Made by a program: the position numbers and the translations under genes. From Psammoneis japonica (taxonomy: Eukaryota), in contig QPGO01000173.1 of NCBI GenBank assembly GCA_008632985.1, positions 62,001 through 126,000 on the forward strand: a stretch of 64,000 nucleotides of DNA, given 5' to 3'. How positions within the stretch are numbered: the first letter of the stretch is position 1; each line of letters starts with the position of its first letter. Below are positions 20,480 through 42,392 of this stretch, piece after piece. A model generated the notes under the pieces. The model saw only the letters and a program-made list of their open reading frames with translations, had not been told where the DNA came from and made no database searches.

Positions 20480-22132
20480 ATGAATGCTGGCAATACCCGT
20501 AAGCCTCGCCCTTCTGCTTCGCCATTGTGCTGCCTCGTCCCTTGCGTGAATGGTGAAATACGCAGTGGTGGTAGCAGCGGACAAGTCTCCCCGTCCCATG
20601 TTGATCTACTCCACATTCCATCTCTGGCGATTGGCGACTTCCTCAGTGATATTAACGAAAACATCTCTGGTGTCCTGTTCTACGAAGAGCGAATGCTATG
20701 CCTTTTACTCCATTTGAACAACCCTCAGAATCGAGTCATCTACGTAACTTCCATGCCTGTTTCGCCCACCGTTGTGGACTACTATCTCAGTTTACTATCA
20801 AACGTATCTATGGAAGACGCCAAACGACGTTTGTCCATGATTTGCTGCTACGATACAATGTGCACCGAGCCACTGGCTCTTAAAATACTCAAAAGGCCTC
20901 GCTTGATGAAGCGAATAAAGAATCAGCTCAGTCCAAGCAAGACGGTAATTTCTACGTATGCTCACACGGAGGCAGAGCAAGAAATCGCACGGCGACTCGG
21001 GATTAACCACGCGCTAAGTCCGATTCTTCCGGTTTGGGGAACAAAATCCGGATCACGCATCGCTTTTCGAGAACTCAACATTCCTCATTGCGTTGGCACT
21101 CACGATTCAGTATTCTCTGTGCAGGACCTTCTAAAGGAGGTTTCTGTGTTGATGGAACATCATCCGAATCTAGACACAATCATGGTGAAGCTGAACGAGG
21201 GCGTTTCGGGCTACGGCAATGCCAAATGGAAACTCCCAAAATCAAACAACGTCCAAGTTCTGGAAGAGTCTCTGATGAAAGATTTGCAGCCTGCTTCAAA
21301 TAAGAGTCCCACAGAGTATCTGGAGAGGCTGTCTGAATTGGGCGGCATTGTCGAAGAATTCTTGACCCATCCGGGGATAAGGTCTCCCAGTGCTCAGGGA
21401 CGAGTTCATGACGATGGATCCGTGGAAGTTGTTTCGACGCATGAACAAGTGTTGCACAATGGCATCTTTGACGGTTGCAGCTTCCCTGCCAAGGAAGAAT
21501 ACAGACTTGAGCTTCAACAACACTGTCTCGCTGTTGGAAAGTTTCTCGCCAGCAAAGGCATCCGAGATGAGAATTACGGTGTCGACTTTATGGCGTGGCA
21601 GGACAAGGAGTGTGGCGTGGGAGACGATGAAAAGTGGCATGTCAGTGCGATTGAAATTAATCTCCGTGTCTTGGGTACGTCGCACCCCATGATGACGATG
21701 AAGCTCGTCATGGTTGGCGGTAAAATGCTTGAAACTGGTGACTTTACGAATCGTGACGGAGAACCGCGATGCTATTTTGCGGTGGATTCGTTTCAGCACG
21801 AATGCCTTTCATCTCTTACTCCCGACGACTTGTTTGATTTGATCGACACCCACGAGGTTCTTCAGTATCACAAGGAAAGCAGCACTGGAACAATCTTTTA
21901 CATGATTGATTCTCTTCCATCCTTTGGGTGAGTCGAAAGCATATTCTTTCACTTTCTGTGATGTAGTGACGATTCGCTTGTTCATCGTTGTTTGACACTC
22001 GTTTCGTTTGTCGTACTCTAGCAAGGTCGGGTTCATGTGCATACAAGATACACCGCGAATAGTTTGAAACTTTTTGAAGAAGTGAAGGAACTTCTCCTTC
22101 AGGAATGCGAAGGCGAACCCTCCCTTGTTTAG
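20480..22132 (+). CDS. PGM1-related ATP-grasp peptide/amino-acid ligase (bacterial-type); intron 21928-22021; probable 1-nt deletion near 22057
   Basis: IPSL, FYEERML, VIYVTS.P, VDYYL.LL, KILKRPRL, WGTKSGSR, VKLNEGVSGYGNA, SPSAQG, STHEQVL, GC.FPA..YR, GVDF, IEINLR..GTSHP; last exon FGKVGFMCI. Confidence 0.85.
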
Positions 22133-22404
22133 ATTCTCGATACATTCAGATGGTAGATGATGCTGTAGAGCGTCACGTCGAAAACGACCGGTAGATTGCT
22201 TGTTTAGATTCCCGATACAAAATTCAGATGCTAGATGCTCTAGCAAGGTGGGGTTCAAGTGCATACAAGATACACCAGCGAATAGTTTGATACACTTTGA
22301 ACTTCTCATTCAGGAATGCGAAGGTGAACTCTCCCTTGTTTAGATTCCCGATACATTTTTCAGATGATAGATGTTCTCTAGAACGATATGTCGAATACGG
22401 CGGT
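22016..22404 (+). repeat. Imperfect tandem duplication of the last exon and 3' UTR of the ATP-grasp gene
   Basis: CTCTAGCAAGGT.GGGTTCA.GTGCATACAAGATACACC at about 22017 and 22238; CTTGTTTAGATTC.CGATACA occurs three times. Confidence 0.85.
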
Positions 22405-22619
22405 TACATTATATAAACTAACTATTGAACTACAGTAGTGACATCGAGCTATGTTGAATGTGAAGTGTAGCATTACTTTGATGCAGAGAAGGGACAGGTG
22501 CAACGCTTCCTTTTTTTGGCTCACTAATTTTGCATCTCAGCGAACATCCGGAGCATGTGATCTGGGATCGCTTTGTTTCCAGCCAATTGTGAGATTGCCT
22601 GAGAGTCACATCTAAACCA

Positions 22620-25600
22620 TGCAGGGAGAACAAGTGGTGCAGCAGTCGATCAACAAACGCAAAGTCAGACAGCTGCATGCAAATCCAGTTTAAAAACCAA
22701 GTTTCTACAGCAACCAGCGTTCCCGAAACTGGCAATCTCAGTCCTCAACCACCACAGCATGTCACAGCAGTCATCATCTTCATGGTTGCTGTCTCTCCAG
22801 GCATCTGATTCATGCTCTTCCAAACCAAGCTCCATCAGCATTAGAAACATTTGAATGATTTGAACATCATCCATTTCATGATGCTGTTGTCTTCTTACCT
22901 CATGATCATTTTGTTGCTGTGCAGAGTTCCAATGTTGGACAACTGCACAAAGGTCAGCTCACAAAAGCACCAAATGCAATGCTGGTGACTCTTGGAGTGA
23001 ATGTTGAACCGGCAAGTCAACGTCACCAAAAGGGAATCCCACGAAGCTTCCTGTGTCACTTGACACACTTGCCTTGGTTTCTTGCAGTGGATGTGGGTCG
23101 CTCAGAAGTTGTTCATGCAAACTTCAAACTTGTGACATGAAGGTTCCCAGTTACACCAAATGCAAAATCATGCAAACCAAATGACCCACTCCAAAGAGTG
23201 GGACAAAATGAAAGGTGAACAAGATCAGTGACAATGAAGTTCCAAATGCAGAGAGTCACCCATGTCAGGAGCTTCAACATCTCTCTTTTCAACACATCTG
23301 GGTTTCCCACATTTCCGTGACCCAGATGTTCCAACAAAATGAGTGCACAAAAGACAGTCCTTGAGCCCCTTGCATGACATCAAAATGGGAGTCTTGACAT
23401 GAGAAAAGAAGCTTCATTGACTTTTTTGGTGTTTTGTGAGAGAAAAACATGCACCCAAAAGCAGTGGTGCAAATGGCAAAAACTGGAGGTCACACAGTGA
23501 GAAAATTTGCTCTCTGCTTGGTCTGCTGAAAATCATTTTTCTGTTCTGAACAACCAAGCTGCTCATTTTGCCAGAAAGAAGGAGTTCCTTGCTCTTTTTT
23601 TTTGCTGCTGGTGGCTTTTGTGCTGTGGCAGAGCCATGGGTGATTTGTGCAAGGTGGTGCAACAAGCATTGCCGCCATTGCACTTCATTGCTTTGGCTGG
23701 CCAGAGCTGCTTGACATGCAACAATGCCAGGCACAGAGCAAAGTGCAAGACTGCTGCAGCAGCTTCTCTTTTGCATGAAAAAAAGCCAATTTTTTCTTGA
23801 TTCAAGGTCAAGATTGACAAGGCTTTCCTTCTTCACCCACAGGTTTGCTTGCTTTTTGTGTCTTGACTGCACACCAATCATGCAACCCCACATTGACAGC
23901 TGCTTTTTTCTGATGTCACCTTGGCAGCTCTCACAGGCTTCCCAATTGTCACCAAGAAAAAGATTTTGTTGCATGTGTTGCTTCACAGCCTTTGCATGAC
24001 CTGTTGGTGATTCATTGACAAAAAAACGACTCACAACAAAATCTGGCCAAGCAAAGGAAAGAGAGCACAGCCTGATGGTGTGCTGTGCTGACGCTCAACC
24101 CCAAGTTGATTGTGTGATCCAACACCAGCAAGACACACAAACAATGTGAGTTTTGTGAAAAAAAATGTCAGCTGAAAATGAGTGCCAAAGACAGTCCTTG
24201 AATTTCTCACATCACGCCAATGCTTGCTTGCACCTCAGCTGCACAATGGCTGGAGATGCAGGCACTGGTGTCTCTGAGGCATGAGAACAAACCAGAGAAG
24301 GAGCCAAAACTTCCATCAGGTGCAACTGCATCAGAGCAGCACCCTCTTCTTCTTTTTTACAAGCTTCTTCTCCCTGGTGTCCCTCCAGACCTCTGACATT
24401 CTCCCTGCCTCTGTGCACACTCTTTCTGCACCCCTTTGGTGATCATGCCTTTGCGTGTGTTCCAAAATGCACAAAGCTCCCATCTGCAGCACTGTTTGCT
24501 CTGTCACAAAAGCCCTTGGAGCAGCTGCCTCTGCCAACCCCATCATCAAGCTCTCTCCTCACACCTTTTTGTCTCATCCCAAACCACCCCCTTGGTGAAG
24601 CCTGCCAGCATTGGAGCTCTTTCTTGCTCCACCTCCCCCGCACACACCCGTCACTTCCTTGGTGTTGAAAACACCACCCCATCCGCCACTTCCTTGCCAT
24701 CAACATTGCTGTTCCTCCAGCTCCTCCCCTCGCCACCCCACAACTGGCTTGCCTGCCCCTTCTGCTGACACCTTGCCAAGGCACAAGGAAACCTCAGAAG
24801 CACCCAGGAGCAAAAAACACATGGCCAAAAATCAGAGAGAGGGTGTTTTCCAACAATGCAAGTGGCCAAAGCTGGAAAAGCTGCTGCCAAAAAAGCTGCT
24901 CTCTCTGTTCTCTGTCTGCTGAAAACAGCCATTCTCTGTGCATGATTTCTGTGCAGCCAATGCACCAAGAAGATGCGGCCACTTTCAATGTGCCCCCTCC
25001 ATTTGTTGTGCCAACCATGTCAACCACAAATGCAGCACTGACCATGCTCTGCACATTTTGCTGCTGGCTTGTCAGAAAGCTTTCCCGGCTGTTGGCCACA
25101 AGCTGCCTGCTCATTTCACCATGAAAAGAAGTCTGTTTTGTTGTTGTTGTTGTTGGCTGTTGTGCTGTGGCGGCAGCGCGAGAGTTTCATGCAAGATGGC
25201 TTGAGTGTTGCTGCCACAACACTTTGTTGCCACAGTGGGATGAGACATTGTTTGGCAACTTTCAACGGCGCATTGTGCAAAAACCACTGGCCACAGCAGC
25301 ATTTTTGCAAGGAAAGTTTTGTCAACTCAAGGTCGTCTGAGCCTGCATGACGAAGCTCACCCTTTTCTTGCTTGAGTGTTTGTTTGCTTTTTGCATCTTG
25401 GCTGCACTGATGCAAGCACAAGCCTTGTCTGACTTCATCTGGCATTGCTTCCAACAGCAACTTGCAAACTTTAAGAATGTGGTCGTTGTCAAGCGGCTTT
25501 TCTTGTGAGTGTTTTCACACAGCCTTTGCACAGCCTGGTGACACACACACAAAATTCAGCAAGAACTGGTCACAAAGAGGAGAAACCAAAGTTTGAAGCC

Positions 25601-36569: not shown

Positions 36570-36840
36570 TAGAGATGCGTATTCTAGGAGTGTTAGTCTA
36601 TGCCATTGCTCCGCTCTCTCTACTCTACTCTAGAGTCTCTAGCTAGAGTAGAGGGCTACTCTCTAGAAGGTAGGGCCCCTACTACTAGCTAGTACTGGTA
36701 GATAATAGCGAGCTAGCTAGAGAGTAGCGAGCTAGTCGCAGGAGTAGTCTAGCTAGCTTCATCTAGAGAGAGTAGCTCTAGAGTAGCCGCAGTAGTCGGT
36801 CGCAGTGGTAGAGTAGGTAGTAGTAGCAGCAGCAGCTAGT
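36570..36840. other. CTAG/TAG-saturated low-complexity island upstream of the ABCC gene
   Basis: CTCTAGAGTCTCTAGCTAGAGTAGAGGGCTACT...GCTAGCTAG...GTAGTAGTAG. Confidence 0.8.
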
Positions 36841-37507
36841 GTCATCCTCCTTGCGGCCTTTACACAGTACCAGCATGCAGACATCTTCACACCTCGGATG
36901 TAGCTACACGGTTACAAATCAACTAACTGTGTTGTTGCAAAGACCTGTTTTGCATGTGTCCTGAGTGACTTATTTCACACATGAAATGGGCACATCCACT
37001 GAGCTTCTGCAACATAAGTGGGGCTATGAAGAGGAGGCCGCACATGACATGGGCCCAGATCAGCGCATTGATGTTACCACACAAGATTTGGGATTCACCT
37101 CACCGCTGTGGCATAGAACGGGTTCCAACGCAAGGGCCCCGCAAGTTCAATGAGATGAATGCGTACAACAAGAGGCGTCCACAAAACTTTCTTGGTTTCA
37201 TCAGAGTCGAGGTTTACCAACAAGGAGCTGCATGCAGGAGGCCTTCAACCGAATTCCTTGAGGGACCAAGGTTAGATCAAGCCAAAAACCTTCCTTTACC
37301 GTGTTCAGATTAAAAAGATCAGATTTAGATGCGAGAGACTACGATTTTCTTTAACGGAAAGACCATATTTAGTAAACGATAGAACTATGTAATGGCACCG
37401 TCCACGTTCAATGTAAAACACTGTGCTACCTTTCTTGCATGCAAGATTCAAAGATGGGTGCATCAACGGATACGTAACTGTGACATGGTTCTGAAAATTC
37501 GACTGTC

Positions 37508-37837
37508 TCATTTCTTTGTCTTGAGCCTTTCCCTCTTTCGACGTTTCCTTAGCTTGTGTTTGTTCATCTTTGCCCGCCTTTTCTTGAGCGTACTGCTCAT
37601 TTGCCAAATCGATCTCTCAAAATACTCAACCCATGGTGTAGCGCCTGTAACCATCCCGTCGAGCCACGTTGAAGCTCCATCAAAAACGCTAGTCTGAACA
37701 CTCCAAAAGGAGCCACGGTGCACTATTGCTTGCGGTGCAGTCTGGAGTTGTAGGCTTGGGCAAGCAGTAGCAAAGGAACGCGCCCTGCTGATGCTACATC
37801 CTCGAGCAAATAATTGTCGGTGTGCGACGGAAAACAT
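37508..37837 (-). CDS. Mitochondrial ribosomal protein mS38 (COX24/AURKAIP1, DUF1713)
   Basis: Arg/Ser-rich transit peptide MFSVAHRQLFARG; C-terminal SSTLKKRRAKMNKHKLRKRRKR. Confidence 0.85.
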   Translation of the reverse strand: MFSVAHRQLFARGCSISRARSFATACPSLQLQTAPQAIVHRGSFWSVQTSVFDGASTWLDGMVTGATPWVEYFERSIWQMSSTLKKRRAKMNKHKLRKRRKRERLKTKK

Positions 37838-38194
37838 AACGACAAAAATTCCGCTCTCTTTTTCTTTCCTGCCAACTCGAACTTCTGTTTTCAAGATACG
37901 TTATCTGCCTCTCTACTCGGCTTTTGTTTCTCGTCGTAGCAAGTGCTGTGCTTTGGTATGGTACGGTAGACAGTGGGATGCTCAAAGCCGATCGATCACC
38001 GCAATGTCGCTGCGTTTGCTCATCATTGTCTGTGTCTGGTTTGAGGTGGGCAGGCGGACAGACGGGTGAGGGAAGGGCAGACCGACCGACAGATGTACCT
38101 ACGGCACATAAGACAACAGATGCTTCGGAGTAGAAGCGAAGCAAGCACGCAAGCAAGCAAGGAAGGATGTGACACCACCAATGGTGATTTTTTA

Positions 38195-39316
38195 CGCTCC
38201 CTCAAGTGAAACTTTGGGCCATGAAAAACCTTTGAGAGAGCACAAAGAAAATTGCAGCCTCCAGGCATTTGTGGCTGCACTGCCTTCACAAGGGCCAAAG
38301 CAAAAAAAGCAAGAAGCGCCTTCGAGAGAGTGGAGCGGTGTGTTGTTGAGGGCAGCAGCAGCGTGACAAAGAATGCACATGCATCTGTGAGAGGGGTGCA
38401 GCACTGCACAAAGCATCCAACACATGGTGGGGTGGAGACTGGGCAAGTGATGCAAATGAGGCACGTTGGGTGTTTGTTGAGGGTGCAAGCAGCGGCGCCG
38501 GTGACGAGAGAGATTCTTGCACGCAGAGGCTGCAGCAGCATGGTCGACAGCCTCGGGCAAATTTTTGCAACAAACAACAAGGTCACACAACAATGGGGCA
38601 CATGCGAAAAACACACCACAGGGCTTTTTAGGACACACGTGTGGTGCTGATGCCAAGACGAATCAACAAGAAACTGATCATGATGCTGCAGCATGCCTGG
38701 CACTGAACTGGCAGGTTGGACCGAGGCAGGCAAAACAAAAAAAGACAGTTGCCAAGACAATGAGCACACACAGATGTGTGAACAAGTATGTTGCTGGCTG
38801 CACACTGCAGACATGGTGCCAGTGCACGGCAGCACCAGACAACAACTGAAAGTGTGCTCCTCTTGCTGGCTGGGAAAAGAAACGGCGGGGAGCTTTCTTT
38901 TGCACGTGGCAGCCCAGCAGCGGCAGTCTGTTCTTGATGCTGAGCAACAATGTGGCATCACACTCAAATGATGCAGGCTCACATGTGAACACTGCTGGGT
39001 GGCATGTGCTGGACCCACACGTTGGCTGCAAGCCAGTGAGTGTGCAAAAGAAGAAGCAAGACAGCAGCAGCTCCTGGGTGTTCTTGCTGGGCACACTGTG
39101 CTTGCCAGGTGGGAGGTCAGTGGGTCCCTCCTCTGATGTGCAGTTTGCTCAACAATTTTCTGGACTTCAAATCTGACAGCAGACCCTTTCCATTCGAGAG
39201 AATGGTCTGAAAGTTCTGCAGAGAGGCGCGGGAATCATCGAGCCCGATGCGTTCGTCTGCTTTTCCCGTGCGCGAGGTTTCGCGCGACTCACGACTCACG
39301 CAGGATCCGAAAAAAT
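38195..39316. pseudogene. Second TpA-void hypermutated tract
   Basis: Only 2 TpA (38629, 38787) in about 1.1 kb; spurious Cys/His-rich ORFs on both strands. Confidence 0.65.
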
Positions 39317-39455
39317 TATATATCATATACTTATGAATTTATGAAGAATCATAAATCGGTTCTACTTTTCATTCTGGTATTCATGTATGCCCACCATGCT
39401 GACATTGAATAGAGGATACAAAATGAATTATATATTAATTTATGAGTATATAATT
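39314..39455. mobile_element. Possible small AT-rich MITE
   Basis: Ends ATATACTTATGAATT and AATTTATGAGTATAT are imperfect inverted repeats; abrupt AT/TA-rich insert. Confidence 0.35.
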
Positions 39456-39701
39456 CATTCGAAAACATTTCGCTTTCGGCGACCACAAGATTTCGCAGCC
39501 ATCGCCTATTTTCGCACACACCATTCGCGTTTCTTCATGACGCCCATTGAACTTCTAATACATAAGCAGTAGCAAGTGACGACCAATCAAGAAAATTAAA
39601 AGAGACGTTAGTGTAAGGAGCCTAGGAGCATCCCATTATTTGTTACTTGCCTTTCCTGTTTGCAGAGCCGAAGCCGTTGTTATCAATCATCAAGCAGCAA
39701 A

Positions 39702-42392
39702 ATGAGAACGAAGAAACCAAGCACAGGAGTTCGGAGGCAGCGAAATAGTGAGTTGATGCAAGGAGATGATCCGAAAATTAGAGTAAGAGACCCAGACGTG
39801 ACCAGTAATTCAGAAAGCGGAGAAAAGACCAGCAGCTTGTCTCCCTCTGCGGTCAAGCGAGCCAATTCAATGGGTGAGTTGGACTCCGCGGATAACTTGT
39901 ACAATCGCGGCGTCTTTCCCCACACTTCAACTGGAATATCTACCGACAAGTACCTTCATGGTGTACTTTCTGACTCGACTGATGACTCCTCAAGAGCCAT
40001 TTGGAGGAGCTATACAGATGATGAAAGGACATTCGGGAACGAAGAAGATGACGGTGATGAGATACGATCACCTTGCGTCTCCTTCAGAGACAAGCTAGAA
40101 GACGAGGATAATGGTGACTGTGAGCGATTCGCTCCATCACCAAGAAGCAGTTCTCCCCTCCAATCGATTCTTCGTTCGATCTCATCTCCAGCCAAGTCCA
40201 TGAAAGAAAACAACGCTACAAAGGATCAGCCGTTCAGATCCTTGTCTCCGTTTGGTTTCTGGTCGATGGGGAAAGAGGAAGAAAACAATGAAACATCAAA
40301 ATCGATTCCATATCCAGAGAAGCGCAAAGATGATTCTACCGCCGCTTCAACTGCGGACTCTCAAGAACAAAATCAAGTCCACCTGGTTCGTGGTGTTTCC
40401 TTGCGGAAAGAGCACCTTGAACCACAGGAGGCTGATGATCTAGAGGATGAAGGTGTCGAAATAGTAGACGGTCGACTCAGCAAGGGAACTTTTCAAAAGC
40501 TACAGAAAAAACTCACAGAACGTGCTTCGACCTCAAAGTCGATGGCTTCAGTGAATTCGATCGGGAAGCCCCACCCATCAGAAATTCCTGCGAACAATGA
40601 AGCTGCGGAGAAGATGGTTTCGTCCGAAGAAGAAAAAGAACAAATTGAACTTCAAGAAGCAAACCTTGATGAAGGTGTCGAAGTACAGATTGGTCAACTC
40701 AGCAGCCAAGCCTTTCAAGCCGTACGGAGGGTTTCGCCGACAAAGACGATTACTTCAGTGAATTCGACCTCGAAAGCCCACCCATCAGCTACTGATACGA
40801 ACAAGGAATATGCGGAAAAGATTGCTTCGTCAACGGATCGTAATGATGTAACAAGCAATGAGCCTGTGGAGTCAGCTGCTTGTATAGAAGTCCCCAAAAA
40901 CGTAACAAGCAAGGGATTTCAGGAAAAGACTGCTTCATCGGAGGAGTGCACTGTTGCTGCGGAACCCGTCGAGAAGATTGCTTCTCCCGAGAAATGCAAT
41001 GAAGCTACAAATAAGGGACTCATGGAAACACCTGCCGTGGCACCCGACAAACTGACGTTGCCTCCTCCAGCTCAAGAAGAAAGCGTGCAAGAGACACAGG
41101 AAAAAGATTCAAGTTCAAAAGAAAATTCGGTGTGTAAGAAGACTCCCAAGGTAAAAGCCGCTGAGAAATTGCAGAAAAACTCCGTACAAAGCACTAAGAA
41201 GAGCGACAAGAAGAGAAGTAGAGGCAAGCGTCGCAAAGACAAAAAGCTAGACAGCGTGCCAGCAGAGATCGCTTTTGACGCTGCGAAGCAAGAGATACCC
41301 ATGACAAAATCGCGAACCAACCGCAGTGGCACCTCAAACCTTCTCATCACAGAGGAAACCGAAAACAAATTTGGGGAAAGGGACCTTGACATAATTGACA
41401 TTGCGCCTCCTACTGCCACTCGAGATGCAAAATTTTTGGAAAAGTCTGTACAAAGCGTACAGTCAATACTTGACGCCCCACCCATTGAATCAAGTAATCC
41501 GTGTTCTACCATTGTACCGAATGATGACATAGCCAGGATGGTGGGAGCTATGTCATGTCCGGCAGATTTTGGTCTTTTCGAGAACGCCTTTCAATCCAAC
41601 GATGTTCCTGAAAAGAACGCACAAGAAGCCTCGGAGTATGTAAAAGACAAACAAGGACAGTCGCTTCTCAATGCTTCTGGTTTCCAGAAAGCAAAATCAA
41701 GAAATGTGCTATGTGAGAAATGTTCCATGGCAGGTGACAATGGCAGCGACGGCAAGGTTTGTCACAATTGCTTGATGCTTCGTGTAAGATCAACAGTAGG
41801 CTCCGGCGCAGCGAGAAGAGCTGAGCGAACCAAGGGTAAAAGCGGAGCAAAACAAAAGTCAGAGCCGGCAAAAGTAGCTGCTGTCAACACCAAGGACCCA
41901 CCACACAGCTCAAGTGATAGGCAGGAAAACATTGAAAGCACCATGGACCTTTCAGGATTTCCCACTACTTTGATCGATCCACGCGAAACTTGTTTTGGGG
42001 ATGCCAACGAGAACGTGGATCGCATGTGTGCCTTGTTCCCTAAGAAGCTCCTGTCGGCGTACAGCAGCCACCTTGAAGGAGAAGGAGTTGGTGGAGGTCA
42101 AGGATCCAGCGCAAAGCACAAGAGCTCTCGATCCAAATACAGATCCGTATCAAAGAGAGCTCGAGAACGAGGACCCGTTCCAATATCTGAAATCGAGATC
42201 CCCGCCGAGAGTGATAGGGATATTCTAAGGACGGTTTCTAGCTTGACGACAAAAAAGAAGAAGACGCCTGAAGGAGGAGCAGCTAAACAAAGGAGTGTGA
42301 AGTTGCAGGCCCAAGCGAAAGAGGTTGCACCTGAGTCACCAAAATCGGCCAAAGGATTTAGGAAATTATTTGCCGGCACAAAAAGGAATTGA
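39702..42392 (+). CDS. Large intrinsically disordered hypothetical protein
   Basis: Long uninterrupted S/E/K-rich ORF; internal repeat DEGVE..G.LS...FQ...S.NS..K.HPS twice; one CxxC...CxxC (CEKC...CHNC). Confidence 0.75.
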   Translation: MRTKKPSTGVRRQRNSELMQGDDPKIRVRDPDVTSNSESGEKTSSLSPSAVKRANSMGELDSADNLYNRGVFPHTSTGISTDKYLHGVLSDSTDDSSRAIWRSYTDDERTFGNEEDDGDEIRSPCVSFRDKLEDEDNGDCERFAPSPRSSSPLQSILRSISSPAKSMKENNATKDQPFRSLSPFGFWSMGKEEENNETSKSIPYPEKRKDDSTAASTADSQEQNQVHLVRGVSLRKEHLEPQEADDLEDEGVEIVDGRLSKGTFQKLQKKLTERASTSKSMASVNSIGKPHPSEIPANNEAAEKMVSSEEEKEQIELQEANLDEGVEVQIGQLSSQAFQAVRRVSPTKTITSVNSTSKAHPSATDTNKEYAEKIASSTDRNDVTSNEPVESAACIEVPKNVTSKGFQEKTASSEECTVAAEPVEKIASPEKCNEATNKGLMETPAVAPDKLTLPPPAQEESVQETQEKDSSSKENSVCKKTPKVKAAEKLQKNSVQSTKKSDKKRSRGKRRKDKKLDSVPAEIAFDAAKQEIPMTKSRTNRSGTSNLLITEETENKFGERDLDIIDIAPPTATRDAKFLEKSVQSVQSILDAPPIESSNPCSTIVPNDDIARMVGAMSCPADFGLFENAFQSNDVPEKNAQEASEYVKDKQGQSLLNASGFQKAKSRNVLCEKCSMAGDNGSDGKVCHNCLMLRVRSTVGSGAARRAERTKGKSGAKQKSEPAKVAAVNTKDPPHSSSDRQENIESTMDLSGFPTTLIDPRETCFGDANENVDRMCALFPKKLLSAYSSHLEGEGVGGGQGSSAKHKSSRSKYRSVSKRARERGPVPISEIEIPAESDRDILRTVSSLTTKKKKTPEGGAAKQRSVKLQAQAKEVAPESPKSAKGFRKLFAGTKRN

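Follow-up and report, generated by a model that had tools for sequence, protein, structure and literature searches.

A TpA-void, single-copy island probably rewritten by a genome-wide TpA>TpG/CpA mutator in a diatom-like genome

Tract 2, as positions 38195-39316 of the window (the whole stretch of DNA analysed, 64,000 nt) are called here, is probably a non-coding stretch of about 1 kb that has been rewritten by a genome-wide TpA>TpG/CpA mutator acting in silenced DNA. There is little doubt that it was shaped by the same process as is seen elsewhere in the genome, it is likely that the mutator acted at this locus and not before a move, and enzymatic deamination of adenine is mildly favoured as the cause of the TpA change.

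Tract 2 contains exactly two TpA in 1,122 nt, at 38629 and 38787, and a recount thus returned the same sites that the initial annotation had reported for about 1.1 kb. From the window background outside tract 2 and the TpA-poor tract at 23-26 kb (tract 1), 47 would be predicted (Poisson P ~4e-18), and the background minimum in any 1,122-nt stretch is 20. The observed/expected ratios are 0.03 for TA, 1.81 for TG, 1.74 for CA and 0.50 for CG, which bears out the flooding with TG and CA that had been described. Per 1000 nt, TG+CA have gained 70.7, to be set beside a loss of 40.0 TA and 19.8 CG. Since the final ca. 115 nt are CpG-rich and not rich in TG/CA, the signature proper extends over ca. 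38195-39200 (Table 1), and these last nucleotides (39200-39316) possibly lie outside the eroded island. The left edge of tract 2 is soft, and the right edge is sharp, with TA-rich DNA restarting at once; the AT-rich segment found there carries a near-direct 10-nt repeat at its ends. Some distance to the left, at window positions 36570-36840, lies a low-complexity patch rich in CTAG/TAG, with an excess of TA (observed/expected 1.5) that is the opposite of the void signature; this patch recurs on other contigs of DNA run X1.

Table 1. Features in and around the two TpA-void tracts of the window
Positions	Strand	Feature	Basis or details
22476..22900	-	3' end of makorin-like (CCCH/RING) gene duplicate; TAs changed to CA/TG relative to the intact C10 copy	Pairwise comparison
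22915..23340	.	Multi-copy repeat in tract 1	28/28 other fetched copies TA- and CG-poor at match
37508..37837	-	mS38/COX24-like gene, left neighbour of tract 2	PF08213 (COX24_C), E 5.4e-8
38023..39096	-	357-aa ORF, read as spurious; Cys/His-rich, Tyr-poor	GTG start at 39096; 41 Cys, 22 His, 1 Tyr
38114..38115	.	Site 80 nt outside left edge: CA in window, TA in run X1 contig	Contig comparison
~38195..39200	.	Core TpA-void, TG/CA-rich, CpG-reduced island	TA 2.0, CG 23.9, CA 121, TG 110 per 1000; single-copy in assembly
38629..38630	.	Surviving TpA, YTAR context (most frequent survivor genome-wide)	Sequence count
38787..38788	.	Surviving TpA, RTAY context (rarest survivor)	Sequence count
38855..39038	.	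Two in-tract sites, 38855 and 39037: TG in window, CG in run X1 contig	Contig comparison
39200..39316	.	TA-free, CpG-rich tail without TG/CA excess	CG 130, TG+CA 96 per 1000
39308..39461	.	AT-rich, TA-rich segment with short inverted repeats; sharp right boundary	Single-copy in assembly
39702..42392	+	896-aa ORF, right neighbour of tract 2, normal TA content	No significant Pfam match

To estimate the scale of the phenomenon, 20 contigs were sampled at fixed positions, in 20 stretches of 10 kb that were divided into 400 bins of 500 nt, a bin being regarded as void when it held at most 4 TA. The distribution of TA was bimodal, and 172 of the 400 bins (ca. 40% of the sample) were void, with 3 TA per 1000 as against 42 in normal bins. 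Void bins have gained 70.2 TG+CA per 1000, and have lost 38.7 TA and 34.0 CG, while AA is practically the same in both kinds of bin (77.2 per 1000 in void and 76.5 in normal bins) and TT is likewise unchanged. The 269 TAs that survive in void bins are distributed as 146 YTAR, 67 YTAY, 46 RTAR and 10 RTAY, to be compared with 673, 947, 1116 and 1166, respectively, in normal bins, which points to a preference for TA followed by a pyrimidine and to the sparing of YTAR sites. Islands on the contig of the window reach 11.7 kb. The signature is borne by unrelated classes of sequence, namely a Copia pol frame, a LINE-like element and a host-gene duplicate, and given this spread and the number of void bins the TA-void process is not rare. 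The Copia element (L089:2191-7973, G000:C120) has long open frames in which TA has been lost and CG kept: its pol frame (RVT_2, E 8e-23; 4.07 kb) contains 23 TA and 280 CG, and Tyr accounts for 11 of its 1,356 codons. In this element, TA erasure came earlier than CpG decay. The LINE-like element (L075:4230-9855, G000:C4), which has an endonuclease domain, exhibits the same drift from Tyr to Cys/His. In the reverse-transcriptase motif, Tyr is the rule at a position at which both retroelements have Cys. Two further long frames that are TA-void and retain CG, L055:2479-4359 and L052:6865-8421, have no element domains and contain 3 Tyr in 627 and 0 Tyr in 519 codons, respectively; they are possibly host-type gene copies caught in islands.

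The direction of change could be read at the edge of tract 1, where positions 21860-22900 of the window form an old segmental duplicate, ca. 82% identical to G000:C10:579.8-580.7 kb. The C10 copy has an intact CCCH/RING gene, and in the window copy tract 1 cuts this makorin-like gene short, with erosion extending over ca. 400 nt. Inside the void, only 1 of the 17 TAs of the C10 copy has been kept, 7 having become CA and 5 TG, as against 12 of 20 kept and 2 changed to CA outside it (Fisher test of kept versus converted TAs, P 7e-5, for a small pair and a boundary chosen after the TA profile had been seen). Of the C10 CGs inside the void 4 of 14 are kept, with 7 changed to TG and 3 to CA. Sorted by the 5' base, A>G changes inside the void amount to 12/33 for TA, 8/61 for AA, 5/66 for CA and 0/57 for GA, and outside the void to 3/37, 6/59, 5/60 and 2/57, respectively, so that A>G is raised inside the void only after T. 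An internal duplication was seen in the segmental duplicate at ca. 22190-22410, and near its own island the C10 copy seems to be eroded reciprocally, an observation that is suggestive only.

In the multi-copy repeat of tract 1, 54 of the 89 YpR columns mix TG and CA among 29 copies, and TG<->CA double changes occur at 0.213, compared with 0.036-0.064 for six other double transitions. Since these double changes are in excess, the copies have mutated independently. Remnants in the 54 mixed columns are CG only in 22, TA only in 5, both in 5 and neither in 22; many of these columns thus started out as CG, and many of the swaps in this family may therefore represent CpG decay. Taken as a whole, these data show that in this genome TA changes to TG or CA, that the change is specific to TA and not to AA, that it affects both strands, that it is separable from CpG loss and that, at tract 1, it takes place in situ and depends on position. 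The initial annotation had suggested a process acting in place on selected loci. The presence of the signature on unrelated sequence classes and the position-dependent erasure at the edge of tract 1 agree with this, and for tract 2 we infer action in place as well, but "selected" understates a process that has left 172 of 400 bins void.

Tract 2 and tract 1 are not similar in sequence (best blastn E 0.52), as had already been stated, and a DNA search of the assembly (91 Mb, 597 contigs) rendered a single candidate, tract 2 itself, a lack of matches that does not prove rarity; its flanks also matched only themselves. The same method with tract 1 as the query found at least 40 relatives at 69-80% identity (40 of 209 candidates scored). 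The search for family members that the initial annotation had proposed thus returned tract 2 alone from the assembly, and blastn and tblastx against 581 kb of fetched genome gave no significant match; one weak tblastx match, to L011 (E 6e-4, ca. 30% over 36 aa), was put down to composition. One TpA-poor family shared by both tracts and unchanged between copies, which that annotation had put forward as the contrary case, is at odds with these results, tract 2 being outside the family of tract 1 and the copies of that family differing by the TG<->CA swaps described above. A blastn search for the ancestor of tract 2 with YpR steps collapsed gave only short noise matches. Protein searches were no more productive: nothing significant was found in the genome itself with 4 of the 6 frames of tract 2 or parts of them (best non-self match in C151, E 0.003, 29% over 70 aa), in PHROGs with six frames, by phmmer with one frame against 1.84 billion representatives, by word-seeded searches with two frames, in the ESM Atlas with one ORF, or in viral contigs with two ORFs. 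Plasmids and Rfam gave no significant match, and phages one 34-nt match attributable to chance. A second island of similar size (1.3 kb, on C30) is likewise single-copy in the assembly. Tract 2 is therefore single-copy today, and neither an ancestor, nor a paralogue, nor an unmutated allele was found in all the searches run, for which reason we infer both the direction of change and the site of mutation at tract 2.

It could also be that the same mutator eroded tract 2 elsewhere, in a larger island or in a mobile element that later moved, or that tract 2 is the stub of an island otherwise lost by deletion. The sharp right edge, with TA-rich DNA resuming at once, would fit such a history, as would the existence of islands of up to 11.7 kb on this contig, and the searches yielded no ancestor by which the order of events could be settled. 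Against it, internal duplications, terminal repeats and target-site duplications in tract 2 were not clearly above those of shuffled sequences (best 6 of 200), no donor copy was found, and on the left, where the edge is soft, a single site 80 nt beyond it has a CA/TA difference. We consider this history unlikely, although it is the alternative that retains most weight. The latter difference comes from a comparison with contigs of run X1, one of three DNA runs from one sample that may be the assembly's own source. Six differences from the window were observed in 4.2 kb, four transitions and two transversions, including a TA/TG difference at 37216; the two inside tract 2 are TG/CG and do not involve TA, which counts against the main reading. 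All four transitions fall in YpR steps, in which about half of the positions lie, and the two that involve TA agree with the preference for TA followed by a pyrimidine; this variation would be weak evidence for a mutator at tract 2. At either end of the interval (window 38055 and 39577) the breaks between X1 contigs are one base apart, a pattern that heterozygous sites would cause.

Erosion in the absence of any dedicated deaminase, through error-prone repair or base modification in methylated chromatin, appears improbable. Possible routes are synthesis of the Pol-eta type that follows T:G repair, or the deamination of an adenine modified at TpA. That TA and CG losses mostly coincide (104 of the 172 void bins have at most 8 CG) would fit erosion of this kind, but a WA-type polymerase signature predicts a depletion of AA/TT, which is not seen, and TA has been lost with CG intact in 45 of the 172 void bins, which keep at least 15 CG, and in the Copia frame of L089. 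These same bins and this frame indicate that TA loss is independent of CpG loss. Much less probable still is that an ADAR-like enzyme with a 5'-UA preference edits the RNA of elements and that reverse transcription writes the edits into DNA. The genome has a second A_deamin gene that is diatom-wide, and many void sequences are retroelements, yet TA has gone to CA and to TG about equally (7 versus 5), and a retro-copy would not explain a continuous genomic duplicate, intergenic DNA included, that is altered only on the side of the island.

Tract 2 is located between two divergently oriented genes, in agreement with its description as an interval between the mS38 gene and a gene at 39.7 kb: the PF08213 match identifies the former, and the 896-aa ORF starts at 39702. 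The minus-strand frame that overlaps it, which measures 357 aa from its GTG, 311 aa from an ATG and 403 aa from stop to stop, is best read as a by-product of the loss of TAA/TAG, since it is open because these stops are missing from tract 2; stops represent 1.3% of the minus-strand triplets. The initial annotation had taken this Cys/His-rich ORF to be spurious, and no homologue was indeed found in a word-seeded protein search (3,046 candidates scored), nor any Pfam match for the ORFs of tract 2 or for all six frames. An exact protein look-up matched 0 of 3 queries, but both real neighbours were among the misses, so that it is uninformative with regard to the ORF. No frame of tract 2 was picked by a mutation-aware codon model, a soft negative since the model was also weak on tract 1. 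Tract 2 can hardly be an expressed gene, or an element that is TpA-poor by nature: given the local frequency of stops, any one minus-strand frame has a chance of ca. 1% of being open for 357 aa, but of 136 void windows 1,250 nt long, 13 contain a frame of at least 300 codons (several of these frames belong to real elements), and neither a homologue, nor a domain, nor coding-like periodicity was detected, which also speaks against the conserved gene that had been named as a possible objection.

Among known processes, repeat-induced point mutation (RIP) of fungi produces dinucleotide-specific transitions in mobile and duplicated DNA, within sharp domains, and converts CpA to TpA, lowers GC and needs a homologous partner. 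The islands described here resemble it in the dinucleotide-specific transitions, the sharp domains and the mobile and duplicated DNA affected, but the direction is the opposite, TpA being lost and CpA gained, and the two islands tested, tract 2 and the second one of 1.3 kb, are single-copy today, even if a former partner may have been lost, have diverged or lie outside the assembly. RIP was therefore rejected as the process. Decay of methylated CpG accounts for part of the signature, CG having changed to TG/CA with CpG depletion (4 of 14 CG kept in the duplicate at tract 1, and a CpG observed/expected ratio of 0.50 in tract 2), but not for the whole, as it leaves unexplained the loss of 40 TA per 1000, and TA has been lost where CG is kept. 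According to Hoguin et al. (PMC9998398), diatom transposons undergo DNMT5-dependent CG methylation. Methylation of this type would explain the CG>TG/CA half and supply a mark of silent chromatin, but cannot remove TpA.

Mettrop et al. (bioRxiv 10.64898/2026.01.13.699255) describe a closer counterpart in Bigelowiella natans. De novo TpA>TpG/CpA mutations were measured there in viral DNA integrated into the genome, with a single-copy region (NCLDV insert) among the targets, at an ongoing rate ca. 1000-fold over background; 124 clusters are reported, rho is 0.45 for the NCLDV region, transposon domains are TpA-depleted, and ADAT2 is the proposed enzyme. Both systems share TpA>TpG/CpA on both strands, bounded domains, a tie, seen here in islands other than tract 2, to mobile or foreign DNA, and access to single-copy regions. 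Tract 2 itself is a bounded domain depleted in TpA and enriched in CpA+TpG; change to both TG and CA on both strands is found in the host-gene duplicate of tract 1 (7 CA and 5 TG of 17), and mobile targets in other islands (Copia RVT_2, LINE-type endonuclease). On the other hand, the host here is diatom-like and not rhizarian, erasure is nearly complete (3 versus 42 TA per 1000, in 172 of 400 bins, where B. natans has its 124 clusters and an NCLDV rho of 0.45), the targets are Copia, LINE-like and host-gene copies with CpG decay alongside, and the evidence is a standing footprint instead of de novo mutations. The genome is assigned to a diatom because one of its genes has its named homologues in that group. 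With signature and direction in common, the process at tract 2 would seem to work like the B. natans system as presented there. No report of TpA hypermutation in diatoms was found in the literature searched, which left most subscription journals outside its scope; a match to "tpa" in PMC4504042 corresponded to "Tpase". A TA-specific A-to-G mutator has so far been found reported only in this one preprint, and for an unrelated alga.

The following sequence of events can be proposed. Tract 2 would be inserted or duplicated DNA that turned heterochromatic; CpG methylation of the DNMT5 type would then drive CG>TG/CA, taking half of its CG, and an adenine deaminase, ADAT/TadA or ADAR-like, would be recruited to the same silent chromatin and convert the A of TpA on either strand to inosine, which would be fixed as G. 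PF00145 has 27 matches in the genome. Candidate deaminase genes, with classes assigned from motifs, are a TadA-like (C38), an ADAT2-like (C26) and two A_deamin genes (C40 and C79). They have ordinary tRNA/RNA roles and are only putative DNA mutators; no chromatin-reader Pfam domain was detected in the frames of these candidates that were scanned. The C79 A_deamin gene (L069, G000:C79:344.5-345.9 kb) is ADAR/ADAT1-like, conserved across diatoms and adjoins a TA-void island. Its homologues include 244 longer ones, and PF02137 is the only domain annotated among the 120 listed, with no dsRNA-binding domain annotated. On the same contig, a single frame at L065:319-1791 joins a deaminase domain with a 2OG-Fe(II) dioxygenase. 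More tentatively, and as a conjecture that we hold to be possible but not the likelier outcome, diatoms might defend their genome independently of homology, by means of an adenine deaminase guided by chromatin, such as the C79 ADAR-like protein lacking a dsRNA-binding domain; this enzyme would edit TpA in double-stranded DNA wherever a domain is silenced, even a single-copy one, and thereby remove Tyr codons from young elements before CpG decay, with about two-fifths of the genome rewritten.

Of the very many examples in the genome, tract 2 by itself is a small one. Through this process transposons escape homology searches, and long false ORFs rich in Cys and His arise. Single-copy islands such as tract 2 are the informative cases, since they suggest that the trigger is a chromatin state and not the pairing of repeats as in RIP. 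If this reading holds, a second eukaryotic supergroup would have a natural, targeted A-to-G DNA mutator that operates on the scale of the genome, and since genetic tools exist for the lineage, both the enzyme and the rule by which it is targeted would become testable.
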